Positions 1-53,528 of a stretch of 64,000 nucleotides of DNA are shown piece by piece. A program made the translations under genes and the position numbers. Origin of the DNA: Phoronis australis (taxonomy: Eukaryota > Animalia > Phoronida); NCBI GenBank assembly GCA_002633005.1, contig NMRA01000532.1, forward strand, positions 1,401-65,400, in the 5' to 3' direction. The notes under the pieces were generated by a model. That model was not told the origin of the DNA. It saw only the letters and a list, made by a program, of their open reading frames with translations, and did not search any database. Positions within the stretch are counted from its first letter, which is position 1; each line of letters opens with the position of its first letter.

Positions 1-108
1 CGCTAATTCTGTCATCATGTTGGGGAATTCCAGGTCGTTCTGGTTGATCACTGTGCTGTGTACTGTGCTGTCCGCATATCAACTGTGCATGTATCGGCGA
101 CTGTCCAT

Positions 109-381
109 NNNNNNNNNNNNNNNNNNNNNNNNNNNNNNNNNNNNNNNNNNNNNNNNNNNNNNNNNNNNNNNNNNNNNNNNNNNNNNNNNNNNNNNNNNNN
201 NNNNNNNNNNNNNNNNNNNNNNNNNNNNNNNNNNNNNNNNNNNNNNNNNNNNNNNNNNNNNNNNNNNNNNNNNNNNNNNNNNNNNNNNNNNNNNNNNNNN
301 NNNNNNNNNNNNNNNNNNNNNNNNNNNNNNNNNNNNNNNNNNNNNNNNNNNNNNNNNNNNNNNNNNNNNNNNNNNNNNNNN
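109..381. other. Assembly gap (N run)
   Basis: Run of N; the 108 nt before it duplicate 717-824. Confidence 0.99.
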
Positions 382-654
382 ACAGATGAACTGAGGTTCA
401 GGGAGTTCTTTTACACGTACCTTTAGTGCTAATCATACTTAGAAGGTTTCACAGGCAAGTTTGGCCGAATGCCAAGAGCCCAAATTTACAAATTTTGACA
501 TTCAAATGTTCACACTTTGCGTAGTGTCCACATTTAATTTCTACACCTGCATGAGACTTTCATAAAAGTGTGTCTTTGGGAGTCCCAGTTTGCCAAAAAT
601 TTTAGCTCCAAAAATACTTATTTTGGTAACTCGTAATTTCATGTAAATCCATTT

Positions 655-2467: not shown

Positions 2468-5400
2468 TAATATGTTTAACATCCATGTATCGAGAAATAT
2501 CCAAACTATTGTTTGTGCATTAATGATCGTGCACTATGATTGTTTGAAAAATGGATAAGGTCACTGGCAATTTGACAGTTTGGGTTAACAGCCATCCCCG
2601 ATTATCTCAAAAATTCTCCTTAGGCATTGATGCGCGGCTTAACTTGCATGTCACCGTGATGGGCACTTATCTTGTAGTTAATTTGGTGATTATCAGATCT
2701 TTTCAGCATGATGCCCTGTGGTAGTGTCGTCTGCTCACCATCCGTGTAACCTGGATCACCATCTGCAGACCTTCACCTATACTGATGCAAGTGTTAATGA
2801 GTTTCAAGACCGTGAGTTGTGTTATGACAATGTTGTTACTGTATAAAAAAGAACTGAAGGTGTTCAGGGACACCAATCCCTAGTTTCAGCCATTCACTCT
2901 AGTAAAGAGGATGATGGGATTGCAGATGGCTATATGTACCGTCAACAATCTGACTTCCAGCATCAGCACATATGATTGACAGCTATCGATGGGCAAGGTA
3001 ATATGAATGTATGAGGACATGTTTAGGATGAGTGTGACAATATGCCGAGGCATGAATGTGATGATGACGACAACGATGTACGTGAGTGTGTGCATTATGA
3101 GTTTTTTGCATGACGGGATGTCAATCAAGTTAAATAGGTAAAAGTCTTCCTCGTGAAAATGGTAAAACTTTCCTGTCAATTTTTTTCACGACAGGATGTC
3201 CATCAGGTTAAAGGGGTAAAATCTTCCCCCATGAAAAGCTGAAACTTTCGTTGAGTTTTCTCAACAGAGGATGTTACTTGAGGGGAGATTAGCGCCACTG
3301 CTACTGAACTGAAGAAACAGCGGATCATTAAATTCAGTCTTGCAAACTGGGTAAAGTCTTGCCTGGTGGGTTGATGACAATTCTTTAAGTGTCAGTGGTT
3401 AATGAATCCAGAACGTGTGACGAATTAATTGTGAAATGATATGAAACTGAAGAACCCATGATATGCTGTGACTAAATTGAAACCATTGAGTGACAAAGCT
3501 AATTGCGAAAAATAAATGAACCCAAAACATACGAAAATTAATGAACCAAGGAAGTGCGAGTTAATGACAAAAACCTGAAAAAGAGTGTAAACCAAACGAA
3601 ACTATGAAATATGAAAAATTGATGGACCAATGAAATGGGAAACTTTAATGAATTCATAAATTATCACAAGGCTTAGAAGGTGTAACGAACCAACTGAACT
3701 TGTAAAATGAGAGGGTGACATATAAAGACATGCTGGTAAAAACCCACTTGAAAAAGCAAGAACCCATAAAATGTTGAGTGTGATGAATAAAATGGGAGAA
3801 ATAACTGAATCCACAGAATGTGAGAATTTATGAATGAACAAAATGCTACTCAAACAAACCTGTGGTTGCCCAAATTAAACGCAAGCGATAAATCTGTAAA
3901 ATGCTATGACTAAATAAAACCACTGAGAGCAATGAAGGAAAATGTGAAAAACAAATGGAGGAAATACCAGGGTATATTCACACACTGTAAATAAGTTAAG
4001 TCTGGACTGTTGAGTAAAGGTACTAAATTCTTTGCCATCAATATGTTTCCAGGTAAAAGAGAAATTCCTTACCCCAAGGAAATTCGAGGAGATGAAAGCA
4101 AACAAAGTGGGCTGGAACAGCGACTAGTTATTGAATTTGTAAAATCTGAAAAATTAAAGAAAAGTGCAAAAACAGGATGATCTTGTAATGAAATGAGAAA
4201 ATTAAGAAAACCACAATAGACATTGAAAAATTTACAAAATGTGTATAAAATGATCGCTAAAAAACAAAAAGTAAAGTACAGTCATGGATGAGTGAAGGGA
4301 TTAATTGCTAAAAAGTCATGAAACAGGTGTTCAGTGATGAACTTGAAATTATGCAAAAATTACCAATTATTGAATTACTAGGTCATAAGGCAATGATCCC
4401 ACCAAAATGAAATGGCAAAATGCGATGGACGTAATGAACACACCAAATAGATGAACTTGCAAAATGTGGTATTACTGATGCACAAGGACACCTATATGCT
4501 GGCAAAAACCAGTTAATATAAGAAAAATTTGCTAAGCTAATGAAACTTTAATTAATGGAACGAGCGAATGATGACTATGTAAAACGAGTCCTGTAGCAGG
4601 ACTGATAGACCAACAAAGGTGCAGAGAGGAATTGTTTGATAAAAGAACAGTCATCTGATCAGCTATATCTGGAATACATGAGAATAATAACTCGGTGAGA
4701 GAAAGCTTATGCATATGGTAGACAGTGCTTGATGAGATCCATTGTCGACATGCCAAGTTTAGGTAAATACTATCAAGGAAAGCAGGAGATACAACACAGA
4801 TAATCAATAAAAGGAACAGGACCCCTTGGAAAATCTCAAGAACTGAAAGTCTACGAAAAACAATTGGCAAAATTCAGATGGTAGTACTTTATGCAACCTT
4901 ATTCATACACCAAATTTCAAAAAATCCCATGTTTCCGTAATGCAGCAAACTGAGAAATAGATGTCACTGCACCATCTCGCATCACTCAAACAATAGGCCT
5001 TGAGCTAATACAGTAACCTGGAGTGTGAATTTCATGTCGATCTAGTAGGTGAAAAAGTGACCTGTAGCACGAGTGTCATACAAACATAGGTGCAGAAAGG
5101 AATTGGTTAATAACAGAGCAGTCATCTGAATATTGAGTATTTCAATAACAGTAAGTTGAATTAAAACTAATACTGCAACGCATATATCACTTCATGAGGT
5201 CCAGCCATCTGCCTAACTTCAGAAAAATACAGCAATGCCACATCTTGGCAATGTGAAATATCGAAAAACGGCCATCACATGCCATCTTGAATTCCAACCA
5301 AAAACAGTTGAGCTTGAGCTATGAACAAGATGCATGTCAACTGGATAAGAAATTCGACCTGTTGCATGATGGTAGTATGATAGAGCAACACTAAGGCTTT

Positions 5401-8400
5401 GTCAATAAAAGAACAATGATCTAAAGAGAAGAGCAAATTTGAGTGAGAAGCATAAGATGCAGTGCTTGACAAAATTGTTTACATATTAATCATTTTGAGA
5501 AAGATTCATCGAGGGATGCCAGCATGAAAAGTCATTCAACTGAACAGCTGTACCCGAAAAATCCTGAATAACGCGAGATCTGTTGTTGCAAAAGCTAGAT
5601 AGACTATTTATGATAGTCTGCTCTTGAAGAGATTCATCCACATTTACCAACTTTCAAAGAATTTTTTTTCTCCCATTGATGATAGAGCTGTAGCTTCACC
5701 AATCAAAATATCCAAAACAATTGGCCTTTAACTTTGAATGAGACAGTTGTGCGTAATTACATGTTAAGTGGATAAGAAATGCTGTCTGTATCATGCAAAC
5801 AAAGATAAGAAGGTACTCATCCTCTCTTTAATATGTTTGACTAGAGACATCTAATTTATGTTTGGCATATGTGCCGTAATGAACATAGACCATGCGTCAG
5901 GGAAGGTCTGTTATCAGAAATAAATAGGATAGATGGATTTGGGAAAATGTCATTTATTATGATGCAACAGTGAAAATAATGCAAAATACAGTCTTTGAAA
6001 AGAAGGGCATAAAAAATAATAAACAAGAGATGTTTGGGACAGTGCAGGCTCATCTGAGACTAATAGGTTTTTAAGGTGCTGCTCTGAATGGATTTGCCTT
6101 GTGTTATCAACTGTTTCGGACGTTCGGGGTGCCGAAGTGTAGTACATTTCTATACATACATTTTAACATGTAGCAGAGAAGTGTAATAAACCAATAGAAC
6201 TTGCAAGTCTGTTTTTGACTTGCAAAACCAGCTATTTGAGAGATCTGACAACCATTTCAAGGCTATTGTGTGTGAGTTGAATTTTTCGAGACCACTGAAA
6301 AGTTTGCGAAACCAATGCTGAAAAAGTGAACTACACCATTGAACTTAGACGTGGAATGAAGGCATCGAAATAGCCTTCACTTGGAACCGAATCATAAACT
6401 GAGAATCTAGTATACTACGTTCGAACAGTATGTAACATTAACTTTCAACTTGCATAAAGGTTCTTATGGATGAGTACTGTGCGAATTCAAGGCAGATACG
6501 GATCGTATCATTGAGACAATCATTTCTAGCTGTTCAGAAGCAGTAAAAATGAAACTGACTGAAACTGAGTAATCTCAACTGAGACTTGACTGTGGACAAA
6601 ACTACAGCACATACTGCCTAATGTCTTCTCAAGTTTGTAGTATGGACGAGTTGCTGTTCAAACAAATTGTAAGACTGCGTAGACATCAGTCCCACCCATG
6701 TATACAGTGCCACATCCCCAAGTTGTGATAATGAAAATCACCAGGCAAGAACTTTGCAAAAACCAAACCATGAACTGATGAGTTTATACCTGTCATATTT
6801 GAGTGCGCGTGATGCGAAGGTTGTCGAGATGGGTAATAAAAAGTGCAGCACTTGGGTAAGAGAAACCACCGAAAAAGGGGGTAGTAATGGGTGGGAAAAA
6901 ATGAAGAGAGATTAAACTCAAATGCAAGTGCTGCTAATGCGAAGGAATGACAGGAAACATATGGTTACTGAGAACAAAAGGCACGTGATAATCATCAACC
7001 TATAGGTGCCAGAAGCGACCAAACTCGAGGCACAAGACAGAAACAACCAATAGTGAGCCTGGGAAAGAAATGTCCTAGTGCGCTGTGTGTGTGTGCAAAA
7101 GAGCCATATGCGAATCTACACAAGCGATTAATGGACCAGTCCGGAAGCAGGAAAAAGGGGTTCATATTCTCACATTAATATGTTTAACGAGTGAAACAGT
7201 ATTTACATTTGAAGTATGTCTCGAAAATAAAAGGTGTGTCGCAAGCTGTTTCCAGAGATAAAAGGAGACCTGATATAAAAATTGTAAAATTATGGAATTC
7301 ATTGTCACTGACAAGTAATTTACCATGTGTTGCGTTTGTGAGAAAAAAAAGTGTGATTCTTTGTTGAATTGCGCCAAACACCATTGTATAATATGTTGGT
7401 GCAACAAAATAGGGACTTGACCACTGCTTGTCACAATGAACTAAAGGCATTATTAATTGAACAAAACAATGCATCAAGTTAATGGAGTTTTGTGAAATGC
7501 AATAATTGAATGTGTCTGTAGAGTGTCATTAAATAAACAGAGAAATAAATGACCTGTAAAATACTAAATATAATTGAATTCATGAAATTGAGGGAAATAA
7601 AATTCTGCAATCTCATTGATAAACAAGCGTTTCAAGTGGTAAAGAATCCATGAAATGCATCAAGTAAATGGCGTCTTGAGCTACAGCAAGATAATGAAAC
7701 TGAAATTACATGAATTAATGAACTCTCAAATGTGTAAAATGCAGCTATCGAAGGAATGTATTTAATGATAAATCATTAAAAGTTGAGAAATTATTGGTTT
7801 GTTAAAAGCAGTTTTGGAGTACGGAACAAATTAATAATCCCTCAAAATATCACAATCATTAAGCTGTTGTAGTATGACAGAACCCGTAAAATGAACTCAA
7901 TATAGTGTGAAGAAGCAAAATTCTAACTATAAGTGAATCTATAAAATGTAAAAAACAAGTGACCCACAAAAGACGAGTTAATAAACAAGTACAACATGAG
8001 GGTAACCGTAAACGTGAGGGTAACCAAAGTCTCGGAAATTTAAATCGTAAGATGCATCATGGAGTGAAGAAGTAGTGCATCAATTTCCGTGAAGTACGAC
8101 AATTTAATGACTCTGTAGACTGTCATGAAATGAACACAGAAATAAATAACCTGTAAAATTTCAAAAATAAGGAACTGGAACTTGGGAATTAATGAACCCC
8201 TAATCTGTCGGGGATAAAGAAACATTTCATGTGGTAAAGGACCAAGATATGCAACAAATCAATAGGGACCTGAGGTACTGCCAAGTGAATGATATTGGGA
8301 AATTTCTTTGAATAAATGAATCTTCAAAACGTGTTGAATGAACAAGCTGACAACTGATTGAGCCCATCAAATGCATTGAATTACTGAATTCTTAAAATTT

Positions 8401-9302
8401 ATGAAATGAACAATTAAGTGCAAAGTAATGAATTAATACAGCCAGAATGTGGTACATTGAAAGTAAATTGAAATTGGATTAAATAAACAAGTGAAAAAAG
8501 GAAAGTAGGGATGGTGAATGAGCAGGTGAAAACAAACCAAATAGCGAATTGACTTTAAATTCAGCTCAAGGAAACACGTTGATCAAACGTGGCTATCAAA
8601 AACCATAGCCTTCTTTACATCAGTATTCTTTCAAGGAACTGACAGACACAGCTCTGGCTAAAACTAAAGTTCATTCACTGTCCTGAGGCTTAAGGGCAAT
8701 GCAGCATTTTTTTCTGCGAGAAGTCATCTGCTAGCATTTGATTCGGTTTACATTTATTTTATGCTGCATCGAATGGTGGTTCCTTTTTTCACAAACTATA
8801 AAATTATGGAATTCTTTGTTGTCGCTGACAATTATCATTGTGTCTCCATTATGTGAGTGAAGCAAGTTGCGTTTCTTGGTTGGATTGAGTCATACACCAG
8901 TGTATAACATGCTGAAACAACACAATGTGTGATTTTGTGTACACAACAAGTTATAAGAGAAATCTTAAATGTTAAGCGAATGAAAAATAGAGACAGCTCA
9001 TTGAACCAATCAAATGCATTGAATTACTGAATTCTGAAAACTTCTAAAATTAACAATTAAGTGCAAAGTCAAAAATTAATACAGCCAGAACATAGTACAT
9101 TGAAAGTAAATTAAATTAATCGAAAGTGCAAAATAAACATGTGAAAAAAGGAAAGTAGGGATGGTGAATGACCAGGTGACAAAAGATGAATAGCAAATTG
9201 ACTTTAAATTCAGCCCAAGGAAACATGTTGACCAAACATGGCTATCAAAACTGTAGCCTTATTTACATCAGTATTCTTCAAAGGAACTGACAGACTCACC
9301 TG

Positions 9303-9636
9303 GGCCCGGTCTCCAATCTTTTTACTCGAAATGGAACTCGAAATTAGGTTTGGCATTTCTACACTACTTTTGGGCAAACTCAAGATAAGTGTCTATTATT
9401 CTATGCTCGAGTACACAATAACTTACGTAGATAATTTATTGACGTTAGTTCACATTTTGTAAACCCAATATTAAAGCAATTAAAGAAATTTCGAGTTTTT
9501 ACTCGAGTTTGCATAAACTACTATATATTCGAGCACAATCTGACAACCAATTATCTTAAGTTTGCACAAAAGGAGCAGAGAAATTGCCAAAAATAGTTTC
9601 AAGTTCGTTTCGAGTACAAAGATTAGAGACCGGGCC
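9303..9636. mobile_element. MITE, PIF/Harbinger-like (~60-bp TIR GGCCCGGTCTC.AATCTTT.TACTCGAAA, CWG target)
   Basis: TIRs at both ends; flanked by CTG/CAG; empty site ctctggttaaaac present in the paralogous module at ~50211. Confidence 0.85.
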
Positions 9637-10055
9637 CAGGTTAAAACTAAATTCATTCACTGTCCTGAGGCTTAAGGGCATGCAGCATTTTTTTCAATAC
9701 TCTATTGGGAGAAGTGATTTGGTTGGGTTTACAATTATTTTATGCTGCATCAAGTGCTGGTTCCTTTTTTCACAAATTGTAAAATTATGGAATTCAGTGT
9801 TATCACTGACAATTGCCATTTTGTCTCCATTATATGAGGAAAGCAACTTGTGTTTCTTGGTTGGATTGTGCCATACACCAGACTGAGTGTATAACATGCT
9901 GAAACAGCACAATGAGTGATTTTGTGTACACCACAAGTTATAAGAGTGATCTTAACAAACCAAAGAATGTAATGAAATTAGAAAGGAGTAATGCTTCATG
10001 AATAGAACAAATAAGTGCATTGAATTAATGGAGCTGTGTGAAATGGCACAAAGGA

Positions 10056-10265
10056 CCTCTGATTCGTCGATTCAATCGAGGCCTCTGATTGGTCGATTGA
10101 ATCGAGGCCTCTGATTGGTCGATTGAATCGAGGCCTCTGATTGGTCGGTTGAATCGAGGCCTCTGATTGGTCGATTCAATCGAGGCCTCTGATTGGTCGG
10201 TTGAATCGAGGCCTCTGATTGGTCGATTCAATCGAGGCCTCTGATTGGTCGATTGAATCGAGGCC
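10056..10265. repeat. 26-bp minisatellite (cctctgattggtcg[a/g]tt[c/g]aatcgagg), ~8 units
   Basis: Direct tandem units. Confidence 0.97.
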
Positions 10266-11207: not shown

Positions 11208-11307
11208 AGGATATGTGCGGCAAGTTTACCTTTGCTGCACCAAGCTATTCTGTTCTGGAGAGTGCTGGCACGCTAGAAGTGGATGTGTTGTTTCACCGCA
11301 AGAAAAT
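11208..11307 (+). CDS. SLC8A: NCX exon: start of CBD1 ([32 protein letters not shown])
   Basis: cttatag acceptor, gtgagt donor; peptide matches Calx-beta strands A-B (NCX1 FFEQGTYQCLENCGTV). Confidence 0.85.
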
Positions 11308-14300
11308 GTGAGTGTTTATAAGTGATCTTAGAGCTCGTGAGGGTTCCTAAAAATTCAGTGTTACCGTGATTTGGTCCGCAAAGCGTATCTCTACTATCTT
11401 AGTTGTTGTGGACATTTTTATTCCACTGTGGTTTCCTCAGTCGATAATGTTCCCACTGTATTGTTGGTCTTCAGCACAGTTTTTGTAATCGATGTAGGAT
11501 TCGTGATAATTTTGAATGGTACCTCATAAGCTTTTCAGTTATCCTTTCAGAATTGTATAATATTATGTTGTATCCTGAACTTATCGAGTCAAACTTCTTC
11601 TGACCTATCTAACGTCTTCATGGCACTGAACAAGAAAATCTATAATATGTGAGATGAAATTATTAATAAAAAACAAACGAAATGTTGACTTTTGCATGTG
11701 GAAATCAATTTGTTTTAAATTTTGTTTTTCAGATCCAAGTCCACTTTAAAAGTTGCTGTGAGTAGTCTTTAAGTTCTAATTGTTGAAAAGACAAGTAATT
11801 TTCTCTAGTTTAGAATACCGTACTTGCACTGGCTCAAAAATACTCGATTGAGACACTGTATATATGTTGCTGCTCTTGAACAATTTTTTCAATCCAGATT
11901 TTTATTTCCAATGTTTTACAACTTGATGAATCCAGGATTAAGTAATTGTGTGCAGACCAACTAAATCCGGTAATGTTTTTCACAGTTACTACCCTTACTA
12001 AATTAATACGGTAACCAACAGTTACAAAACTGTTAAAACCCAAGTTCCTGGTTATAGCATCCTTTGTTATGTGAAGAGCATTAATTATAATGGGGCTTTT
12101 GCATTTCTGCTTATACTGTTGAGTTCAGGTTATAACTTTACAAGTGCTTTCTAAACCCACTCACAGAGGTGTAGAACGGAGTGTTGTAACCCTTTGGTGG
12201 TATGGGACATTTGTAAAAAACAAAATTTTTAGTCTCCTAAAACTACAGTACATTACTGTGTCCTGTGGTATGGAGTTATGGTATGCTCGGGGTAACAATG
12301 GAAGTTATTTTACCCCCAAGTTATTTTCCTTTTCTCAGAATGGTGGAACTACCATTGCCAACAACAACACTGACGAAAAGGAAACCACTCTAACAGAAGT
12401 GACACCTATGGACAGGGAACTGGAAGACATTATCACAGGAGTTGTCTCAGTTGATTTTGAGACACGCGAAGGAACCGCTAAGATGGACAAAGATTTCAAA
12501 TTTGCTCAAGGAAAATTGGTAAGCTCAGTTTCAATTCCAGTGCAATAATTTATCGTATTATTTTGGAAATTAATCATTCAATCCGAATGCATTGTCAAGT
12601 TCAAATTTGAATAAATCAATTTAACTGCAATCACTTGAAAATTGTCTGATATCATTTTTGGCTTTAGTAATGGACTTACCCAGAGTATGCAAGTGATATC
12701 TTTATACTAAACATGGAACTTGAGAGATCAGTGAAATGCGTTATTAGCTGGACACTCAGGTCTCAGTTGTGCAATGCTCCAATCTATGTTTCATGAAACA
12801 TCCAGAAAACAACTGAGAAACCTGCATGTTAGGCAAACCGATGCAATGTTTTTCTGGATGATGCTTTCATTTTTATGTGTCCCCCCAGGCTTTATATTGC
12901 CGTCATAACCTCTGTTTGGGCATCTGGTGTAGGCTGCTGTATCTCCTAAATTCCTTGCCCGGTTTTCATGAGATTCAGTAGAGTCGACGTGTTCCTTTGA
13001 AGCTAACTGCAGACAAGTTTCGGACTGAACCGAATGCTGCAGTTACTGCTTAGTAGCAGATTTGGTTTTTTAACTTTGCTTCTGTTTCTACGAAGTTCCT
13101 TGACAGCTTTTTTTTCAAAAAATGGCAAATAGGTTTCGATTGAAACACCAGCAGCCTTCGAATTGTGAATGCATTTGACGATTTTCAACCACTGTCGGAC
13201 ATCTTAATTTATTTTTAGTCTGCTTCTCTATTTGCCAAATCCCTTGAAGGTCATGATTGTGAAGTTTGGAAGATATATTCTTATTGAGGAGAGCACTTCT
13301 GACATTGATTTTTCGACAGGTATTGCTACTGTGGTGTCCCCTAGTGGCCATTTTTTTGCTTTGCTTCTGCCTCAGTATCTACTAAGTTTGTGGATGGACC
13401 CGAGTATTGTGCTGTTTCCTTGTGGAAATTATGATTTTCTTTACATCTGCCTCAGTATTTTCCAACTTCCTTCTATGGAACTTGGTGTAATAGAGCATAT
13501 GTGCTCCTACACTCCTTATTCTGAAAATTGTATCTCGCGTAATGGTTCCAGATTTTAGTTATATCTTATACATGGATGGTAGTATGTTCCCAGTTTTGGA
13601 TGGATATAAACTATTCTGTGCTCCTAGTGACCAATTTTTGATTACTTTTACCTGTGTCTGTGGCATTTGCTTCTATATGTGCCAAAGTGCTTGAAGGATC
13701 ATTATGAAAATTGACGGGTGTGTTCCTACTGAGAAGACTGACTTTGATATTCAGATGGTCCTATCTATTGTGGCAGTCCGTAGGTGCATTTATTTCATCT
13801 GTGGCTATATTTCCTTTATCCTTTGTGGGATGTCCGTGGCAAGTCTTTCCCAGGAATGTGAGAACAACTTTTTACTTTTGGACATATCTGTGCCCCCTAG
13901 TGGCAGTTTGATTTTTTACCACGGCCTGTTTTATTTGACGGATTTTCTGGAATTACAGAGACAACAGCACCTTTTCAACTTTTGAGAGATTTGGTTATTC
14001 TGTGCCACTCAGTGGCCATTTTTAGATTTTTTATTTTATTATTCATTATTTATACATCAATTACCTAAAAAACCACTGAGTCACTGATCAGTCTATTTAA
14101 TCATGCTTTCATTGTCCATTAATTATCACCACGTACCTAAAAACCACAGCCATTGATCTACCTACTGAGTCATTTTTTCATCATTCACTAATTATCCACC
14201 ACTTATACCTAACAAACCACTCATCTGTCTACTCAATCATCCTTTCATTATTCACTAAGTATCCTCCACTTAACTAACAAACCACTCATCTGTCTACTCA

Positions 14301-17300
14301 ATCATCCTCTCATTATTCACTAAGTATCCTCCACTTAACTAACAAACCACTCATCTGTCTACTCAATCATCCTTTCATTATTCACTAAGTATCCTCCACT
14401 TAACTAACAAACCACTCATCTGTCTACTCAATCATCCTCTCATTATTCACTAAGTATCCACCACTTATAACTAACAAACCACTCATCTGTCTACTCAATC
14501 ATCCTCTCATTATTCACTAAGTATCCACCACTTATAACTAACAAACCACTCATCTGTCTACTCACCTACTTTCATTGGCCATTGGCTCAAAAATACTCGC
14601 TAAACTCATTGAGGCACTGTAAATATGTTGCTGCTCTTGAACGTTTTTTTTTTTCAATCCAAAGTTTTACTTCCAATGTTTTACAAACCACTGAGTCACT
14701 GATCTGTCTTTTCAATCATGCTGTCCTTATCCATTAATTCCCATCACTGACCTATCATCCTGTCATTACCCATTATCAAATTACGTAACAAACTCTTACT
14801 AGATATTACTTTCTTGATTCTCTTGTGTTTGAAGACTGTTGTTTTTTGCCATCTTATGATTTTAGAGAATGTGAGATTTTTTTATGTAAATTTGTAATTT
14901 TACTTACAGTTAAGTAACTATGTAAGTAAAAGTATGCATAACCTTTAAAATTTCGGTAAGATTAGAGATTACTCAACTTCCATTTTCCTTCTGAATAATG
15001 TGATTTTGAAGAGATAATTGAGACTCATTTTAGATGTAAAATATTTTTCGTTTCACGTATATCGCTTTAAGGCAAATGTCCTAAAGAGCCAGTCACATGC
15101 TGTTAAAAGACGTCAAGTAAATGCAACTATTTTTGTTGAATCTCGTACTCTCTTCTACTCATTAAGAGATCCTGTAATATGTCATTTAATTGTTGTTTCT
15201 ATGGATGAGTTTTGTGATCAGAGAGATTCCACTGTTTTAGATTTTCCACGAGGAAGAATTCTGTAAAACCATCTCCATACCCATAGTGGCTGATCACCAG
15301 TGGGAAGGAGACAATGAGTTTTACGTTATTTTGAAAAACCCACAAGGTGACTCGGGCCTTGGGGACCCCAGTGTTACACGCGTCCTGATTATTGATGATG
15401 ACGGTAGGTGCAGACATGGTTTGAAGAGATCGCTTGATCGGCTTGGGTATGAGCAACTTCAAATTTGGCAAGCCAAGTGATTTTTATCAAAATAACTTTT
15501 TAGCTGCCGTAGTTGTGTTGGGCACCAATTGGTGCATTATACTGGCAGTGAGACTCGTAAAACAGATGGAGAGAAATTTTAGTTTTTTAAGTTGCTCAGG
15601 CTTGCTGATTAAGTGACTTGTTTGTTATGAGTTTGTGTGTGTTTTCAACGATACCACATTTGTTCATTTTAGGTATTTGCAGAGCACGAGTATAGGAAGA
15701 CAATTTCGGTTCCGATTATCAACGATTTGAATTTCCATAATAATGTTGAGTTCTACGTTATATTAAAAAATCCCGATGGGGACGCGGGTATTGGCGACCC
15801 AAGCATCACCCGTTGCACAATAGTTGATGATGATGGTAAGATAGTCCCCAGTTTTGCACTCCTCTATCCAACTTTTCGCTGTTTTGCCTGTGTGTTTCAC
15901 CTCTATGCCTTCCCGGGAGTTTCTCTTCACTGTTTTAAATGATTCAGCCCGTGCCTTTGCATACACTGAGCTTTAAATGCACTCTCCAGGTGTCACTCCT
16001 CAGCAATGGTCATAAGATAATCCAATGATTTGGACTTTTGTTACTAATACATAATGTCTGTTTTCTCTCCTCTATGCTTAGTTCTAAGGAGTGACCCAGG
16101 GATACCCACTGTAATTTCGCTCACACACAGTTAACCCAAGGGAGTTGACCACAAACAATATAACTTTTACTGTTGCTGTGTTTTATCTCACATATTAAAA
16201 TACAGAAAGCTGCTCATCTTATATATGTTTGTAAGTGAGATTGCCAAATTCTGTTTCGCTGGAGTGTCAAATGTATTTATAAGTTGTTTATTTTTGCCAC
16301 ATTTTACTTTGGGAAAATGAAAAATGTGGACTACACTTAATCTAATCTAACTTGAACAGATCTCTGTAAAAATTGTATCACCAATCACATTTGACAAACT
16401 TAAATACTCGTAAGACGTGTTTTGCGTGACTACCTCGGTCTTTACTGAATTCTTTCCCATCGCACTAGTTGCTACATCCTAACGCATGCTCCTCAAGCCA
16501 GTGAGCTGCGAAAATAGTCACTGGAGAACATCTTCACTCAGTGAAGGTCACATTTTATTGAGCGATGAAACTAACAATGAGATGTCACACTGCCGTTATT
16601 CCGTTTTGCAACATTCTTGCTGTCTCCACTGCTAGCCTATCTGACAGCACTACAGTAGTATAGCTCAGGCTTTTGCTGGTGTTGGAAGGTAGAATGCACA
16701 AAAACAAAATTAATGTAAGGTGTACTCAACATAGTAGAACTCGCCCAATAAAACTAGCTCAGCACACACAAGTGTGAGACCCTCAGCAGAGACTAGCTGT
16801 ATACAACAATGTGATGATAGACAGCACAGTTTTTGGAGAGCGTAGTTTGATTTCAGAATGAAGCTCATCTTTAGCAATCCTTTGGTAAAGTAATTTCTGT
16901 ATCCTCATTTAACACACCCCCTTCCACACAGTGCAACGTCCTACACACATCCTAGCTTTCATTTCCTTTCTTTTAGTCACGCTCTCAAAACTCAAGGGTA
17001 ATAATCCTTTCTATAGTTATTGAGTACATAGCATGTGCTTTTAAGACCTAGTAGTCATTGGTATAGTCTTGGTGTTACATGTGACAGGGACGGATATGAT
17101 TAGTTTAAGGATGGGGGCGTCACTAATATCTCTATGGTGCATCCCGTCATTATCGTCTGTGTGAAATGATCCCTCAGAGTCAACTATGTGGAGTAACCCC
17201 CGTCATCTACTCTCAACCACGAGGCTATTTCAGTCACTGAGTTTAGTTTTAGAATATGCAACTGCATAAGGCCAAAAAGCGTAAGTGATTCTGGTCTTTT

Positions 17301-20300
17301 TTGCAAACCGTTTCCATGGTGAGGTATTTTTTCTTGCTTGTTCATAATTTTAAAAGGAAAATGCACCTGAGGTTAAACCAAAATGACGAGGGATTTTTGT
17401 TAATTTTACCCATTGTTTTGTAAATCATTGTCTTCAAAACCTTGCTTGTTCTTGCTGACTGGCTTTTGTGCATCTTTTTAAAAAAGCACAAGACCAGTAG
17501 GCTGACATTGATGGGGCAAGCAATTTTTTTCTTAGTCGAAGAGTACTGGTCTCAAAGTGAGTCTGAGTAACGACCAGAACCAACCAATGCTTTTTTGGCC
17601 TAAAATCAGATACGATTGTGGGAGTAGTGAGTTAATCCGTCCCTGTTCACTTTGCTATATAGTTGTATCTGGGTTACCATAGTAACTTTGCTATTCAATT
17701 CTAGATGTATATAGCTGAAACTCGCTAAGCATTGATGTGTAGAGTTTGATTAGAATACATTTTAGCACTTGCTTGTTAGATTTTATTGAATGATGTGTTG
17801 TGATTAAGGCGTATTTAGTTATTTTAACTAAAATGTTATTGGTGTGATGTGTAGGTGACACCAGCTTGCAAGTTTTAGTAAAATGGACAAGACTGATATA
17901 GATCTGTCATTATCTTGCAAAAATCGCTACATGTAAACAATGCACTTACTGTGCATTTGGAATTATAATTAATGTTTTAGTCTCATTTTCTTAAATAACA
18001 CCAGTGGGATCATATGTTAGATTCTGTTGACTCTAAACTGATTCTGCATTTCAATACATTTTTCAGATACACTTTTATGCGCCTACGATATATGGCGTCA
18101 TCCCCATCCATCCGTCCTTAAGGCGTCCGCTTCTGTATCTCCAAAACCCCTTCATGGATTTTGTGAAATTTTGCAGTCATGCTTGTGTCATGAATGAGAC
18201 AACACAAATGAATTGTTTTGACAGATCTGACTACTGCTGTGCCTCCTAATGGCAATTTTATTTTTTACGTTTGTCTCAGTCTGTCAATTAAAGATCTTTC
18301 CTTGACGAATTTCCATCTGTGACGAATTCAACATAGTCTGCACCACTTAGTGGCCATTTTACTGTGGCACCCCGTAGTGGCTGTTTTTGCTAAGACCCCT
18401 GCAGGATATTTGTTAAATTTGGCAAGTGTATTTCTATGGACGTGACAACGACGACAACTTTCGGAGGTAATTGCAGCAACAGTTGTACTTCATCCCTGGT
18501 GGTAATTTTAGTTTTTCACTATCTTTTGAATATTCAAAATTCCTTGATTAATTTTCATGAAATTTGGCCATAAGTTTACTTTTTTGGATAAATTTGACGC
18601 AAATAGTATGCCACCTACTAGCCATTTTTATTATTTTTTTCAAATTTCATTTTGGTGTCTGCCTTTCTATCTCCAAACCACTAAGAATTGATAATGAAAA
18701 TTTATTTGGCAATTGTGTTTCTTCTGGAAAGTTCCTGGCAAAACATGATGTTTGGACAGACTTACTGATTTGGTGCCCTCTATTGACAATTTTGTTATTT
18801 TTGCCTCAGTGGTTCCATATCTACCATGTACCTCAATAGATAGTCTTGAAATATAAATGATGCGGATTTTGTGTCAAATTTAACTACTGTGGAATCTCCT
18901 ACAGGCAATGCTTGTCTTTGTGTTTGCCTTAATATCTATCAAGTTCTGTGATGCATGTTCATGAAATTTGGCTAATAAGTTACTATCATGAACACATCAC
19001 AAATCCTGTTGCAGACGGATTTGACCTACATTGCCCCCCTACCGGCCTTTTTATTGTTTTTTTTTTGTCTGTTCTTTGTTGTCCTCCCCATAATCTTCCA
19101 AACTTTGTGGAGAATCATGATGAAAAGTGACAGGTGTGTTCCTATTAAGGAAAGCATTGCTGACTTCTTTTGCACCCTATAGGGGTTATTGTTTTAAACT
19201 TACTGGCATTGCTCCCTCTGGTGGGAATGTTTAAAATAGTAACTATCTCTTGTATCTGCTCTGTGTGTGATGCAAGCAGTGGGTACTTATTAATTTTTGC
19301 TTTGTTTACATTCAAAAAGATTTTAAAAGCCAGTGCAGGTACAAACATCAAAAACTGATTAAAACTGTGCTGGATTAGTTGTAGTGAATGATCTACTTAT
19401 CACCCTGAGTATGACAAAGATGGCACATTGATCACTTGTGAAAATATTGGGTACATCTAAGCTGTTTGACGTTGACTTTTACCTTGTCCTGCAGTCTGTC
19501 ACAGCCATTGAGAAAGAGCAAGGCTTATATGTTTGGAAGATTTACTCAGATTTATTCTGCTTCTTCCGTACTTGGTAATGGAGTAGCCTTTATACAGTCA
19601 TATAGTTTTCATAAATTCAATACCTAACAAGCCTTTGGGACCTTCTTTTGCAACACAAATTTGCACTTCTTTCACTGCGACAATGTCCATAGTTTTAATT
19701 TCCTGTGATTGTGTTTTCCTGTCAATGAAATGCAAGCACTCAGATGACCTTTTAACTTTTTCGCGTACATGCATGTTGACCTTTGACCTGCGAACGTCAC
19801 AGTAATGACACCGCAACTGCATGTGAGTGCTGGATCAATTCACATAGAATGTAGCTATCCACTTTTTTGATGAGTATTTAGTTCACGGAATGATTCCATA
19901 TTCACAAGACTAATGTGCATAAGCCATAACCTTTTGTTCAGACACCTGGGGCTGAAACATTTCAATACTAATTTAGTTTCCATTGTTTTATTTCACCAAC
20001 TTACCGCATTCCTATGTGTTTTTAAACTCTTTTTCAGAACCTGGGGAGTTCACTTTTGAAAAATCTCATTTGTACGCTGACCCCAGCAATGGGGTCGCTA
20101 CGGCAACTGTGATGCGTCAGAAAGGCTGTGATGGGACTGTTACTATAGAGTTCTCAACAATGTAAGTTTCTTCAAACACTTTAACTTCGGATTGTTTAGG
20201 ATAATTTGAATATGATGAAATTTTTAAGATATGGAGTAATCATTTTGAAGTAGAACAAAATGACACATTTCCTTTCAAGGTCAGTCAGTGTGAAGTAATT

Positions 20301-23300
20301 GCCTCTATTGGTGGAGAACTTTTAACTTATAACTGGCAATTTACATTGTGCTATCATCTGAGGTATCCTGTTGGGGCTGAAAGGAAAACATCTTGGTAAT
20401 CTTCTATTTTTGTGGTTAGGTGTTATTACTTCAGTGTTGAAAATCCTTTATTCACTCACTTTAGAAATTTGTTCACAATTTTTGATTCTTAGAATTTAAG
20501 GAAAATATGCCTTGTAGTTAAATGAAAACCAGTGGCTCGGTTGTTTATTTTTGCTAATTGTGTTTCCACCAACAGTGATGGTCTGGCTAAAGGGGGTCCG
20601 TCAGATAGTGAGGAGGCCGACTACGTAGCAAGTGGCGGTATTTTGGAGTTTAAGCACGGGGAGACCAGCAAAGAAATCAGCGTCCAGTTGAATAAAGCAC
20701 TTACTACAAAGGTATAATGAGGAGTAGTATTGAGAAAATATAACGAGATAAGGAAGGTGTAAGGATGGGTAATAAATGGAGGTCCTCTGATAGTGATGGA
20801 ACTTGAAGTAACAGGAATTACGTATTTTAAACAAATGAGTACCTTTTGCTTATTACAAAAATATCACAAACTGAGTGGTATTATTTGTTATTTGAGCTTG
20901 ATTAAAGTTTTAGTTTTCAGAGGAAACTATAAGCTGCTAGATATAAAAATTTGTGTTTGCGAATTGCGATTTTTCCCCGTAGCATTGGCTGTATGCAAGT
21001 CGACTCCTTAACAAATGATGTGAAGTGTGCAAGAACATGGAATACATTTTAAATTCTTAGAGAGGCTTCATTGTTTTGTTTTCAGGGCTTCAAGAACTTT
21101 ATCGTTGCATTGAGGAACCCAAGCTTAGGAGCAAAAATTGGAGAGCACAGCGCCACAGTGGTCAATCTTACACAAGGTGGGATATGGTGATGGGCAGTTT
21201 GTGTTTTGGAGCTTTGTTTCTTGCTTTACATTTAAGAAATCCAAATTGGATCACTTTGTTTCTTGCTTTACAATTAAGAAATCCAAAATGGATCACTTTG
21301 TTTCTTGCTTTACATTTAAGAAATCCAAAATGGATCACTACAGCTATAACCACGTCTAATGAAAATGAATATTGTCGGAAAGACAACTAATTGAAGTTGA
21401 ATCTCATTAAGTCAAATTAACATTTTCTGTAGAAGTGACGTGTATTTGATAAGTGACTTTACGGGGGAGGTGCAGGCCCTCTACTGACATGACAAAAAAT
21501 GTCATCGTTGGCATCTTTCAAAGCTTTGTAGCTTTTGAAAATCTCGTCTAAGTGGCAAATATGTATTTAAAGTACATTGTTTTACGCCACCAAATTTTGT
21601 GATTTTTCAGTGTCTGCTATGAATTTGTTCAATTAGGTGTGCTACTTCTTAACTGTACGTCTTGAGTTTGCATGAAATTGTCTACTATTCCAGATGAAAT
21701 AGGCGACCGCATTGCTGAAATATTGGACGATGACGAAGACGAAAAAATCTCTTGGGGGGAGCAGTTCAGGAAGTATGTATTTTCAGTTATTATGTTATTC
21801 CATGTGTTATTTTATTTTACGTTATTCCAAGTGTTATTTTATTTTATGTTATTCTAAGTGTTATTTACATTTATTTATTTCAAGTGTTATTTTATTTTAC
21901 ATTATTCCAAGTGTTATTTTATTTTACATTTTTCCAAGTGTTACTTTTTTGAGTTCAGCTATTTTTAAAAAGTAGACAGTGTACGTGTTTGCACAGCTTT
22001 TTCACGTACGACAAATTGAAACCAGGCACATATTAACTACCACTGAAATTCTAACAGTTACGAGCGGTGTTATGTTGCTGTATCAGCACATGCTTTGGTA
22101 CTGTCAAGCGACTTGACAATAGTAAACCCAGTAAGTCACCGACTGCCTCCCGTACAGTATTGATAACCATAAACATACTGACTTTCTCACTTACAGTATC
22201 ACTACAGCCCAGACATCGATAATCTCGCCTGTATAAATAATTACAATTCCACACCGACTGCACAATTAGGGTACCAATCTCGGCGACAAACGCACATTTG
22301 CAGCACAATTTCACATTTTATTCTCAGTACAGTTGACACAGTGACTATACGATCATTTTTCAAAATTGTAACTTACACCTGTCCCACTTAATACCAATTA
22401 CGTTAGCTCACCACATAGCTTGGTCATTTTTCCTGTTCATCTTTAGGTATTACAGCGTAATAAATACTCTGGAGGTTGGTGTAAATAGGCCAATAGGTTA
22501 TAAATGATATGTTAGTACATGGCCATTTTAAAGCAGTTTCGGGATGTCTAACTGAAAATGGCAACTGTAGTAAGACCGAACATTAACTGCCATATTATAA
22601 TAGGAATGAGAATTATGGTTATGGGAGTGCCTGTAATGAGTCAGTGTACTGATATTATAATTATTATAATTTCAAATAATGCAAATGGTGTTTGTGCTTG
22701 TTCAGTTCCATGAAGATTGAGGCAGACGAGGACGAGGATGGGAACGAGATACCCCTTAAGTGGTACGACTATGCGCTGCACTTCGTCATGTTTGCATGGA
22801 AAATCTTCTTTGCCTTTATTCCACCCACGTGAGTATTACAGGGACGTGCATGAGACGCCTGAGTGTCTTTCCAGTTATGCTATAACTTCCTCTCTTTTAA
22901 TGGCCATGTCAGACTAGAGTGGTAATGTGAATTAATTTCTGATAGTAGGCATCTGTGCATATGTTGGGAGAATGCTACGTTTTTTTCCTTTCTGGTACTC
23001 TGATATTTAGCTAGCCCAGGCATACTTTTGGAATTAGGAGGTCTATCAACCAAAAACGGTTAATTTATAGTAGGTTGTGAAGTGTGTTTGCAAATATGAA
23101 AAACTAAAAACAACATAATGATTAAAATGGGTTTCTAAAACTGCAGACTGACGTGATAATTGACTGTAAATTTAGCTTTTGCTGACACTGTTCATTATTG
23201 GGAACCCTTCAGGACCTGAGAAATTACATATAACTGGGGCCCAAAAATAGCTAGGCTATGGGCCTATACGTGGATAATTTTTCTAATATAGGCTATGCAG

Positions 23301-25980
23301 CTGCTCTCTGAGTAAGTGAACTTTGTGAATTATTTAAATATTAAGTTATTGGATATTCTATTGATCAGATCCTCAGTGTCAATGTTTGGCCAATCCCCTT
23401 TAGCATACATATCATCCCCTGTAAACATCCATAAGGAAAAACATCCATACGTAAAAGGAAAAATCCATAAGATCTCTAAACTGGATTGCAAGGTGACATT
23501 TTATTAATTATTCGGTGAAATAAGACCTGCTCCTACAAGTTACGCCATTGAAAAGATCCTTCCGTTCACGGAGAAATCCACTGCTTTATTGCGTCCTGAA
23601 TTTCCTTACGGGAGACCCCATTCAGAATCTTTTCAGTCACAACTGAAAGTCGCTTTCGAAACAAAACGTTACTTCACAGTTGTCGGGATTCTCGAAATGC
23701 AGTGTGCACATGATCAAAGTGGAAGGAAATCTAGCTACCATGAAATAATGCGCGATTTTATAAGACCGTTTACTGGCTGTTTGTGCTCTCTGTGGTGTAC
23801 AGTACATTTGTAAACGTTGACATCATAGGAATTGTTTATAGCTCTGAATTAATATAATTGAAGTTTTTTTTAAAAGAATCGTACACACGTATACTATTTT
23901 ATTGATTCAAATCTGTATAAAATACAGACATTCTGAATAGGTTGACATGTTGAATTGTTTCCCATTGGCAGGCACATGGGTGGAGGCGGGCCTGCCTTCT
24001 GCTTGTCACTCGCCTTCGTAGGCTTCTGTACAGCCGTTGTGGAAACATTGGGTCACTTGTTGGGGTGTGTCGTTGGACTCTACGTCCCTGTGACAGGTAT
24101 GTTGAGTTAGCATTGTTAAAGTCATTAGACTCAATGTCGCTGTGACAGGTATGTTGAACTATAGCATTGTGAAAGTCACCGGACTCTATACATTTATGTG
24201 GTAGACATGTTGAACTAGCATGTGGAAAGTGTCCTCTGACCACTTTGTCAGCGTCAAAAGAAATAATAATTTTAGAACTTGGAATGCAAGCTTACAATTT
24301 ATGCTTTCTCCTTCTGTGTCAGGCTCATTTCAGATTTTCCACATTTTGACATGACTTTGTTATCCAATGCAGGTATCACTATTGTTGCTTTTGGTACCAG
24401 TTTGCCAGACACCTTTGCTAGTCGGACGGCCGCATTACAAGATGATGGTGCAGACGCTGCCATTGGCAACATCACAGGTAACATTCATTTCAATGCATCA
24501 GAGGACTTGCTATGTTTCACCTGTTGATAACACGGTGTTTGTCCAATTTAACACTGCATGGGAAATAGTGATATTAGTGACCCAAATTTTGAGGTCGGTA
24601 CAAGAGGAGTTTAACTCTTTGTCAACCTCCTGACATGCAATTATCAAAACACGACAACAGGTGGAATATAGACCTGCTGCTGTTTTGTTTTCATGGGGAA
24701 CTGAATTTCAGTTTGAAGGAGCTTAATTGACTGCATGCGAAAGTAATTTCTGTAAACTCTTTTTTAAATGCATTCATTTTTTTATCAGTGGAATAGCAGC
24801 GCCACAGATTGTGACATTTTTGTCCAATGGGATCAAGTTCTGTAGTAAACATGAGGTTTCATTAGGCCAAAGAAAATGGCATAGTTGGTTCTCAATGGTC
24901 TGCACCTGACTCAGTTTTAAATTTGTGTCCCATTTTTAAAGAAAAAAATCCTGCCTTACTTTTGCAATTTTCGCTAGCACCACCACAGTGTTTTGCATCA
25001 CCTTTTCGTAATGTAAGATTGAGTCTTGTAAGTTGTCCTGCCTCGTATGTCACAGTCTTTTGTTGATTGATTATAGGTAGTAATAGTGTCAACGTATTCC
25101 TGGGTCTGGGGTTGCCGTGGGTGATGAGTACACTATATTACTATTTCACAAACAAGAACAAGGGTGTCTACACAGTGTCACAGGCGAGCCTTCCACAGTC
25201 CGTCATTATTTTCACCACATGTGGCACCATCTGTATAATCATGCTGCTGGTTCGGAGAGTGGTGAGTCCTGCTCTTTGGCTTTATTCTTTAGATGGATTG
25301 TTGAGAGCCACGTAATAATTCGGATCTCATTGAAGTGGCAAACACTATTCATGTGAGATATTTTTTCATTTGGTATGATAAAGCTTTTCATCGTATTGTA
25401 AGATTTTTCATGTAAGAGAATTTTTTTCTCCATTTTCACATTTTCATATAATTCTAAAGTTCCGTGCACCTACATGATACAAATGATGCATGCGTATTGC
25501 TGTCATCTCAGTCTGGGTGTCCTACATCTGCTACCTGGCATCATCTTAGTCCTGGCTTACTGCATCATTCTGTATTTGCGTCTGCTTCTTTATGCCAAGT
25601 CACTCGCGGTGTGTAAAATGGAGCAAATGTGTGTCACCAAAAAGATGCTGCCTGTAAATGTTTAACTGCTGCATCCCCTGAGGTGATTTTAACGTTTTTG
25701 TGTTCATTTTGCACCCTGCTCTCTACAAGTATATCTACCGAACAGTTTGAGGATTGTCATGAAATTTGAGGGATGCTCTTTCGTTTTCTTTGTTGTTACT
25801 TCTCTAGACTGTCAAATTTACCGAATTATTATGTGTATTTGTTCACAGGTGATTGGAGGAGAACTAGGGGGATCTAAAGTTGTCAAGTGGGCGTGCAGTA
25901 TTGTTCTCCTAATTCTCTGGTTCACATACATTATTATCTCTGCTGCTCTTGCCTATGGGTGGTTCAAGTGGGAAATGTGA
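11208..25980 (+). CDS. SLC8A: Sodium/calcium exchanger (SLC8/NCX family), 3' part: CBD1, CBD2, TM6-TM10; spliced CDS of 13 exons per isoform, ~521 aa visible, N-terminal exons outside the window
   Basis: GT-AG exons join in one frame (1568 nt; first exon enters in phase 1) to a TGA at 25978-25980. Diagnostic motifs: [38 protein letters not shown] (CBD1-CBD2 linker), [23 protein letters not shown], alpha-2 repeat [17 protein letters not shown]...[30 protein letters not shown]. Calx-beta domains indicate NCX rather than NCKX. Confidence 0.95.
11733..11757 (+). CDS. SLC8A: NCX 25-nt microexon (ISKSTLKVA)
   Basis: tttgtttttcag acceptor, gtgagt donor; converts the phase-2 end of the upstream exon to the phase-0 start of the downstream exon. 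Confidence 0.75.
12339..12518 (+). CDS. SLC8A: NCX exon: CBD1 loop insert plus strands C-D (NGGTT...[27 protein letters not shown])
   Basis: tttctcag / gtaagc; [11 protein letters not shown] matches NCX1 VDFRTEDGTAN. Confidence 0.9.
12871..14020 (+). mobile_element. Degenerate interspersed element with ~130-150-bp internal repeats carrying a GCCCCCTAGTGGC motif (Helentron/HINE-like non-autonomous element)
   Basis: Same 5' head (ttttatg.g.c...atat.g.cgtc...ctgtatctcc) as 18073 and 10329; motif recurs at ~13333, 13618, 13889 and 14002. Family assignment is inference. Confidence 0.55.
14070..14570. repeat. 65-67-bp minisatellite, ~7 units
   Basis: aacaaaccactcatctgtctactc recurs at 14211, 14276, 14341, 14406, 14473 and 14540. 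Confidence 0.95.
15241..15403 (+). CDS. SLC8A: NCX mutually exclusive exon a, CBD1 C-terminal half ([54 protein letters not shown])
   Basis: ttttag / gtaggt; 163 nt, phase 0 to phase 1; open frame. Confidence 0.9.
15673..15835 (+). CDS. SLC8A: NCX mutually exclusive exon b, CBD1 C-terminal half ([54 protein letters not shown])
   Basis: ttttag / gtaaga; 163 nt, same phases as exon a; open frame, clear paralogue of exon a. Confidence 0.9.
17270..17600. mobile_element. MITE with GGCCAAAAA TIR and TAA TSD
   Basis: taa|ggccaaaaagc...ttctggtc and gaccagaa...gcttttttggcc|taa. Confidence 0.7.
18073..19230 (+). mobile_element. Second copy of the element with periodic GCCCCCTAGTGGC-like motif
   Basis: Head ttttatgcgcct...atatggcgtc, short (ccat/ccgt)n tract, then motif at ~18240, 18340, 18366, 18490, 18609, 18773, 19031 and 19210. 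Confidence 0.55.
20038..20161 (+). CDS. SLC8A: NCX exon: start of CBD2 ([41 protein letters not shown])
   Basis: ttttcag / gtaagt; phase-compatible with either exon a or exon b. Confidence 0.9.
20576..20711 (+). CDS. SLC8A: NCX exon: CBD2 ([46 protein letters not shown])
   Basis: aacag / gtataa; DG.AKGG..DY....G.LEF Calx-beta motif. Confidence 0.9.
21086..21176 (+). CDS. SLC8A: NCX exon: end of CBD2 ([30 protein letters not shown])
   Basis: ttttcag / gtggga; frame-compatible; Calx-beta strands F-G. Confidence 0.85.
21212..21337. repeat. 42-bp tandem repeat x3 (intronic)
   Basis: ctttgtttcttgctttacatttaagaaatccaaa.tggatca x3. Confidence 0.95.
21694..21772 (+). CDS. SLC8A: NCX exon ([26 protein letters not shown])
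   Basis: ttccag / gtatgt; SWGEQF matches NCX SWREQF. Confidence 0.9.
21790..21945. repeat. ~27-bp AT-rich tandem repeat (intronic)
   Basis: ttattccaagtgttattttattttac, ~5-6 units. Confidence 0.85.
22706..22828 (+). CDS. SLC8A: NCX exon ([41 protein letters not shown])
   Basis: ttcag / gtgagt; matches NCX DYVMHFLTVFWKVLFAFVPP. Confidence 0.92.
23972..24096 (+). CDS. SLC8A: NCX exon TM6-7 ([41 protein letters not shown])
   Basis: ggcag / gtatgt; hydrophobic TM peptide in frame. Confidence 0.9.
24077..24235. repeat. ~52-bp tandem repeat x3 spanning the exon 23972-24096 donor site
   Basis: gactc...ctgtgacaggtatgttga...tagcattgt.aaagtca repeated. Confidence 0.8.
24373..24477 (+). CDS. SLC8A: NCX exon, alpha-2 repeat ([35 protein letters not shown])
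   Basis: tgcag / gtaaca; canonical GTSxPD ion-binding motif. Confidence 0.95.
25077..25261 (+). CDS. SLC8A: NCX exon ([24 protein letters not shown]...IIMLLVRRV)
   Basis: ttatag / gtgagt; matches GSNAVNVFLGIG. Confidence 0.93.
25849..25980 (+). CDS. SLC8A: NCX terminal coding exon ([43 protein letters not shown])
   Basis: ttcacag acceptor; GGELGG motif, last TM, TGA stop. Confidence 0.93.
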   Translation: MIGGELGGSKVVKWACSIVLLILWFTYIIISAALAYGWFKWEM

Positions 25981-53097: not shown

Positions 53098-53528
53098 CAG
53101 GTTAAAACTAAAGTTCATTCACTGTCCTGAGGCTTAAGGGCATGCAGCATTTTTTTTCAATACTCTATTGGGAGAAGTGATCTGCTAGCATTTGGTTGGG
53201 TTTACAATTATTTTATGCTGCATCAAGTGCTGGTTCCTTTTTTCACAAATTGTAAAATTATGGAATTCAGTGTTATCACTGACAATTGCCATTTTGTCTC
53301 CATTATATGAGGAAAGCAACTTGTGTTTCTTGGTTGGATTGTGCCATACACCAGACTGAGTGTATAACATGCTGAAACAGCACAATGTGTGATTTTGTGT
53401 ACACCACAAGTTATAAGAGTGATCTTAACAAACCAAAGAATGTAATGAAATTAGAAAGGAGTAATGCTTCATGAATAGAACAAATAAGTGCATTGAATTA
53501 ATGGAGCTGTGTGAAATGGCACAAAGGA

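Follow-up and report, generated by a model that had tools for sequence, protein, structure and literature searches.

A tandem exon pair in CBD1 of a divergent invertebrate NCX, predicted to be used mutually exclusively and possibly to alter Ca2+ sensing

Introduction

In NCX1 and NCX3, the choice between two homologous exons (A and B) replaces strand E, the EF loop and strand F of the Calx-beta domain CBD2 and sets the number of Ca2+ sites (PMC9820601). The same source describes CBD1 of NCX orthologs, isoforms and splice variants as having four Ca2+ sites, and places all splicing of NCX and CALX in CBD2. Drosophila CALX1.1 and CALX1.2 are reported there to differ at five residues of the CBD2 FG loop, with the ligands of CBD1 unchanged and CBD2 devoid of Ca2+ binding (PMC9820601). 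Exons 4a and 4b of OGDH are mutually exclusive and give Ca2+-sensitive and Ca2+-insensitive isoforms (PMC7969005).

The locus examined here lies in a 64,000-nt stretch of the Phoronis australis genome (assembly GCA_002633005.1, contig NMRA01000532.1, positions 1,401 to 65,400), referred to as the window, to which all coordinates refer. It contains two tandem homologous exons, a and b, of an NCX gene. Like exons A/B of NCX1/3, the two exons exchange a stretch of a Calx-beta domain from strand E through the EF loop to strand F; unlike those, they reside in CBD1 rather than in CBD2, the secondary sensor, and they also carry strand G and a DDD motif. As with CALX1.1/CALX1.2, the host is an invertebrate NCX, and the altered Ca2+ response that CALX splicing brings about is predicted here; in contrast to CALX, the exchange covers an entire CBD1 exon of 54 residues and includes a direct ligand, and the Arg of the CALX GARG motif (R532 in NCX1) is replaced by Asp in the present group. 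Exon choice is also predicted to alter Ca2+ sensitivity as in OGDH, in a different protein; the distant branch points that enforce exclusivity in OGDH were not found at this locus, where the AG-free zone is 39 nt.

Because the pair affects another domain, includes strand G with DDD and belongs to a different NCX group, it most likely arose independently of the vertebrate exons A/B. No report of CBD1 splicing was found in the literature searched, a body that leaves out most subscription journals and with them much of the work on NCX. Within that literature, an earlier sequence-only reading of this DNA was borne out in its claim that the regulatory splicing described so far lies in CBD2, and a prior report of a CBD1 pair, which it had named as removing novelty, was not found. 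The CBD1 exon pair echoes the vertebrate CBD2 exons A/B; what is new is the other domain and the other NCX group, and it has been seen in one genome.

Results

Anatomy of the exon pair and its host gene

Exons a and b are adjacent, homologous and 163 nt apiece. Both run from phase 0 to phase 1, are open in frame 0 and are bounded by AG and GT, with TTTTAG immediately upstream of each and donors of GTAGGT after exon a and GTAAGA after exon b. The original proposal of tandem 163-nt exons with equal phase, open frames and canonical splice sites was verified against the sequence, as were the donor at 12518 and the acceptor at 20038 that it had named as flanking sites. The two copies are identical at 32/54 residues and 94/162 nt. 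The exons of the gene within the window are as follows.

11208..11307, + strand: exon for CBD1 strands A-B, with the E385 equivalent in VLESAG; found by tblastn with 9/9 orthologs, AG/GT bounded, open in the spliced frame
11733..11757, + strand: predicted micro-exon of 25 nt in the long CBD1 BC-loop insertion; AG/GT bounded, restores the frame between its flanking exons
12339..12518, + strand: upstream constitutive exon, CBD1 strands C-D, ending in phase 0, with Glu at the D421 position
15241..15403, + strand: exon a, CBD1 strands E-G, EF loop at 15289-15318, ending in DDD (498-500)
15404..15672, + strand: 269-nt intron separating exons a and b; a CTGAT near 15605 resembles a branch point, and the AG-free zone measures 39 nt
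15673..15835, + strand: exon b, CBD1 strands E-G, EF loop at 15721-15750, ending in DDD, with an internal AG
20038..20161, + strand: downstream constitutive exon, encoding the linker EPGEFT between CBD1 and CBD2, in which G503 is retained, and strands A-C of CBD2, where Asp occupies the R532 position; RNA reads in one run
20576..20711, + strand: CBD2 strands D-E and acid-free EF loop (sequence, spliced model, RNA)
21086..21176, + strand: CBD2 strands F-G, joined to 21694 in three reads
21694..21772, + strand: exon after CBD2 (spliced model, RNA, tblastn)
22706..22828, + strand: exon leading into the C-terminal membrane domain (spliced model, tblastn)
23972..24096, + strand: membrane-domain exon (spliced model, tblastn)
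24373..24477, + strand: alpha-2 repeat exon, with GNIT (Pfam Na_Ca_ex)
25077..25261, + strand: membrane exon (Pfam Na_Ca_ex, spliced model, tblastn)
25849..25980, + strand: last coding exon, to the stop codon (spliced model, tblastn)

Spliced models were built by script using 13 other or alternative exon positions from 11208 to 25980. Models with exon a alone or exon b alone were open through to the natural stop; those with neither exon, or with both joined at the first AG of exon b, were frameshifted. A second AG (15681-15682) lies 10 nt into exon b, and a start at 15683 permits an in-frame a+b join. The earlier statement that inclusion of both exons or of neither shifts the frame holds for these models but is limited, for the double inclusion, to the first AG. 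When the window was searched by tblastn with nine orthologs, the CBD1 strand E-G exon was the only doubled exon of the gene, every other exon being found once. The 5' half of the gene, encoding the alpha-1 repeat and N-terminal membrane half that most full-length orthologs possess, was placed outside the window by tblastn with orthologs.

Several repeats were recorded elsewhere in the window. A 52-bp tandem repeat at 24069-24178 takes in the final part of exon 23972-24096 and its donor (TGTGACAGGTATGTTGA twice), so that another donor-like site lies about 52 nt further downstream. Positions 1-10265 and 41226-64000 share a large nested repeat of kilobase blocks, 94-98% identical and in both orientations, which contains a 26-bp tandem array (about 10050-10265 and 53500-54100) and no NCX exons. 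A tandem duplication of about 700 bp with 95% identity surrounds a single N at 32139-33517 and is possibly an assembly join.

Assignment of the pair to CBD1

Each exon matches positions 64-119, the C-terminal half, of the Pfam Calx-beta model. Searches with single exons were ambiguous and their top match suggested CBD2, an assignment that was ruled out by full-length alignment. Exons a and b each match residues 465-518 in the full-length Owenia ortholog P0020, which has two Calx-beta domains, and this segment aligns in turn to CBD1 of NCX1 and CALX, directly before the DDD-HAGIFT linker. The location originally proposed, in CBD1 and not in CBD2, is confirmed by this alignment. The predicted fold of P0020 (mean pLDDT 69.6) found human NCX1 as its best match (8sgj, E 7.3e-45). 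On comparison of the spliced model with its orthologs, two tandem Calx-beta domains lie between the membrane halves, P0020 resembling NCX1 and its CBD12 module. The alpha-2 ion-binding motifs GTS.PD.FAS and GN.TGSN are present in exons 24373-24477 and 25077-25261; aligned to human NCX1 via an ortholog, they are kept in 22/23 rows, the remaining row being a truncated protein.

Relationship to a divergent group of invertebrate exchangers

Relatives of the gene were found in echinoderms, hemichordates, amphioxus, annelids, a brachiopod, nemerteans, a bryozoan and a flatworm, under RefSeq names such as "NCX 1/2/3-like" or "magnesium/proton exchanger-like". They are 47-62% identical to the window model over the C-terminal 520 residues, the best being from Owenia (316/506), to which the window gene is also nearest; it is placed among spiralians with weak support. 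Members share a long BC-loop insertion in CBD1, a CBD2 EF loop free of acids and intact alpha-repeat motifs. Judged by these alignments, the gene is a member of a divergent invertebrate NCX group and not of the NCX1/CALX type, and the group appears as a conserved NCX paralog common to deuterostome and spiralian invertebrates (P0001-P0042).

In NCX1, R532 forms a bridge to D499/D500, couples Ca2+ binding in CBD1 to CBD2, and is required for the occlusion of Ca2+ and the reorientation of the domains (PMC3386913). The position equivalent to R532, counted from H501 in the alignment, is Asp in 23/23 rows (one row being the green algal NCX P0078 and one the window), such that the salt bridge of the canonical module is absent. 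Gly503 of the CBD1-CBD2 linker is Gly in all 23 rows, and the E385 equivalent is kept in 22 of them. Given Asp at the R532 position and the acid-free EF loop of CBD2, regulation and coupling of the NCX1 type would not be simply transferable to this group, and the idea that CBD1 governs transport in the way it does in NCX1 is weakened to a supposition. It might be that Asp at 532 adds a Ca2+ ligand across the CBD1-CBD2 interface. Asp is the commonest residue at that place in multi-repeat Calx-beta proteins (13/61 rough pattern matches). A profile search of 50% representatives retrieved 150 such multi-repeat proteins, and none of the 147 new ones carried the NCX membrane motif.

Low-identity invertebrate NCX-like genes were discounted in earlier work as lineage-specific duplicates, probably without function (On et al. 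2008, PMC2408596); the present group may be among the genes so described. Coral NCXB is another divergent NCX type (PMC6209159), and invertebrates have a single NCX according to PMC3355786. No functional study of the group was found in the literature searched, mostly outside subscription journals.

To the extent that annotation covers them, the relatives have a single version of the exon: no second version was seen among the 68 listed proteins that cover the segment, from 23 taxa with one version each. In this set the largest amphioxus cluster is represented by 15 of its 30 members, and fragments not reaching the segment are excluded. Searches for homologs of the exons returned two longer proteins and three short fragments, all like a single-copy exon, and no b-type partner. 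The absence of an alternative CBD1 exon from annotated relatives is in keeping with the novelty proposed in the sequence-only reading; since annotation can miss exons, the single versions are no proof of absence.

Age of the duplication and selection on both copies

Identity between the exons by codon position is 34, 45 and 15 of 54, with pS at 0.90 (saturated) and pN at 0.29, and different codons are used at 22 of the 32 residues that they share. When neutral decay of one copy was simulated, at least 32 identities were retained in 2/5000 runs at 0.5 substitutions per site and in 0/5000 runs at both 1 and 2. Mean identity to 20 ortholog segments, leaving out the alga and three short fragments, was 33.7 of 54 residues for exon a and 32.4 for exon b, compared with 34.8 for pairs of orthologs. 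Saturated synonymous sites and identity at the level of orthologs indicate that the duplication is old and that both copies have been held by long-term purifying selection. Long-term neutral evolution of one copy, an outcome that had been named as counting against a regulatory role, was rejected by the simulation, which leaves room for a recent loss of use.

Both copies also depart from columns conserved among orthologs. Exon a has Trp in a Tyr/Phe column and Leu where 19/20 segments have Thr, and exon b has Cys and Val in columns that are otherwise 20/20; such changes fit relaxed constraint as well as specialisation. The positions of a and b in a tree of the 54 columns were not resolved.

Ca2+ ligands in the two exons

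NCX1 numbering was counted by hand on an alignment to 3US9, with the E454K change and H501 as anchors. In that structure, ligands of Ca2 include E385 and E451; Ca3 is bound by E385, D447, I449, E451, D498 and D500, Ca4 by E385, D446, D447, D499 and D500, and F450 is a core residue of the interface (PMC3386913). Of the four ions in CBD1, three are ligated by E451 (PMC9820601). The corresponding loop residues of the two exons are listed below.

Exon a: Ala446, Asp447, Trp450, Glu451 (15304-15306), Asp453, Asn454
Exon b: Asn446, Asp447, Phe450, His451 (15736-15738), Asn453, Val454

Among the 20 ortholog segments the majority residues were Asn446 (17/20), Asp447 (18/20), Glu451 (16/20) and Asp453 (14/20), with a non-acidic residue at 454; DDD is kept in 20/20 and in both exons of the pair. 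Exon b differs from this majority at Q449, E451 and D453. The full CBD1 ligand set (E385, D421, D446, D447, E451, E454, D498-D500) is not present, neither exon being acidic at 446 or 454. The sequence-only reading had proposed that exon a keeps the D447 and E451 equivalents, and that exon b has His at E451 and no other acid in the loop. The residues of exon a and the His of exon b were found as described, but exon b keeps Asp447, along with Asn446, and exon a has Ala446. As exon a is itself incomplete, the contrast appears closer to complementary loss than to an intact versus a dead sensor. The further idea of a pH or metal sensor in exon b rests on a single His and is without support.

E451 is absent in 4/20 ortholog segments: two sea cucumbers have Thr instead, and two amphioxus species (P0032, P0093) have Gln. 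The sea cucumber orthologs (P0001, P0002, P0142) also do not have D447. No report of a D447V change was found in the literature searched. The pattern points to repeated loss of CBD1 ligands in this paralog, in sea cucumbers and in amphioxus. The sea cucumber loop is tentatively read as convergent with exon b, as a single version occurs there and the window gene is placed, with weak support, among spiralians. That a b-like state is apparently tolerated as the annotated form in some lineages supports exon b as encoding a viable protein; the same losses may equally warn that the Ca2+ site is dispensable.

RNA evidence and splicing signals

RNA was mapped to 14600-21200 from three raw runs (about 18-19% of each) and a contig set. 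The gene is barely expressed in these data, with no depth over exon a and most of exon b in any of the four data sets. Mapping was dominated by an intronic repeat at about 18100-19300, where many reads aligned at 90-95% identity and in nearly all cases in one orientation; these represent a transcribed repeat family from other loci. A total of eight reads fell on 19900-21200, over the three next exons and their flanks, which is too few to inform on exon choice. One read pair spans 20038-20161 and 20576-20711 with the intervening intron uncovered, and three reads join 21176 to 21694, with some intronic depth besides. The gene is spliced and, assuming a stranded library of the usual type, is transcribed from the + strand.

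Nothing in the 269-nt intron suggests a steric block like that of OGDH, CTGAT lying about 65 nt before the acceptor. A distant branch point as enforcer of exclusivity is not supported, the AG-free zone being so short. A motif shared upstream of both exons scored no better than 20% of shuffles or than several unrelated acceptor pairs from the same gene, and no common docking site or docking-selector pairing stood out in this one genome. By default, exclusivity would come from frame-coupled decay of wrong products together with choice by splicing factors.

Discussion

The observations are best explained by an old duplication of the CBD1 strand E-G exon, with both copies intact and probably spliced one at a time; inclusion of both or neither would lead to an early stop, the simplest ground on which to expect exclusivity. 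Isoform a would possess full Ca3 and Ca2 sets (E385, D447, the 449 position, E451, D498, D500), with Ala446 weakening Ca4. Isoform b would keep the Ca4 set (Asn446, D447, D499, D500, E385) and lose the ligand common to Ca1-Ca3, and would bind fewer Ca2+ ions, more weakly. As the CBD2 EF loop of the group is acid-free, CBD1 is probably the sole tunable sensor left, which may account for a switch located in CBD1 in this gene and in CBD2 in vertebrates. That both exons are used, each to the exclusion of the other, we regard as distinctly probable and, granted such use, a difference in Ca2+ sensing, predicted from His in place of E451, as fairly probable. For the two together, as read from the genome, we would put the probability at about 0.5.

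It could be that the exons are used exclusively and that the swap mainly tunes CBD1-CBD2 packing, stability or a partner surface, rather than Ca2+ occupancy. We consider this rather unlikely, if deserving of attention: the R532 position is Asp throughout the group, so CBD1 may not gate transport by Ca2+, the F450 interface position is Trp in a and Phe in b, 22/54 residues differ between the exons, many of them beyond the loop, and the sea cucumber and amphioxus orthologs manage without E451. Set against this, the retention across phyla of E385 (22/23), DDD (20/20), D447 (18/20) and E451 (16/20) argues for a working Ca2+ site, and it is those ligand positions that the changes in exon b strike.

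An unlikely alternative is that, after a long period in which the pair was functional, a single exon is used today, the other having become a minor or silent copy that is starting to decay. The sparse reads give no RNA support for either a or b, both are altered at columns conserved in orthologs, and the pair occurs in no annotated relative. Both copies nevertheless have kept their exact length and reading frame, their canonical splice sites and an identity at the level of orthologs, and since long-term neutrality is rejected, only a recent loss would be compatible with the data.

It is more doubtful still, and in our view quite improbable, that exon b is a cassette following exon a. Used from its first AG, it would be a poison exon with an early stop; used from the AG at 15681-15682, it would be an in-frame insert, placing a spare half-domain between CBD1 and CBD2 and uncoupling them. 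The in-frame join from 15683 makes such a product possible, and the 269-nt intron, with its branch point in a normal position, presents no steric block, nor was docking pairing found. A poison exon, however, needs no amino acid conservation, and exon b keeps a conserved Phe and Glu upstream of the internal AG that are coded only when the first AG is used. An assembly artefact or haplotype duplication has a negligible chance of being the cause for, although the window is repeat-rich and has N gaps, the copies agree at just 94/162 nt with saturated third positions, their downstream flanks are unrelated (16/60) and there is no N near either.

Starting from the preferred reading, of mutually exclusive exons whose products differ in Ca2+ sensing, a wider one can be put forward tentatively: that a splice switch acting on the primary Ca2+ sensor of an ancient NCX paralog arose independently in a spiralian lineage, with exon a turning gating on and exon b turning it off. 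In the same speculative reading, CBD2 would no longer bind Ca2+ and the R532 tether would have been replaced by Asp. A single gene might then reproduce the sensor-bearing and sensor-less states that have been fixed separately elsewhere, in most phyla versus sea cucumbers and amphioxus.

CBD1 has been treated as the fixed primary sensor of NCX, the described regulatory splicing being all in CBD2. A natural CBD1 pair in an otherwise identical protein offers a ready test of the E451-centred sites in a full-length exchanger, and it also lets one probe how CBD1 signals when the R532 tether is missing. Exon duplication would here have struck the same structural element, the EF loop, twice and in two different domains. 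The pair also points to a conserved invertebrate NCX paralog, where low-identity genes had earlier been set aside as probably non-functional.
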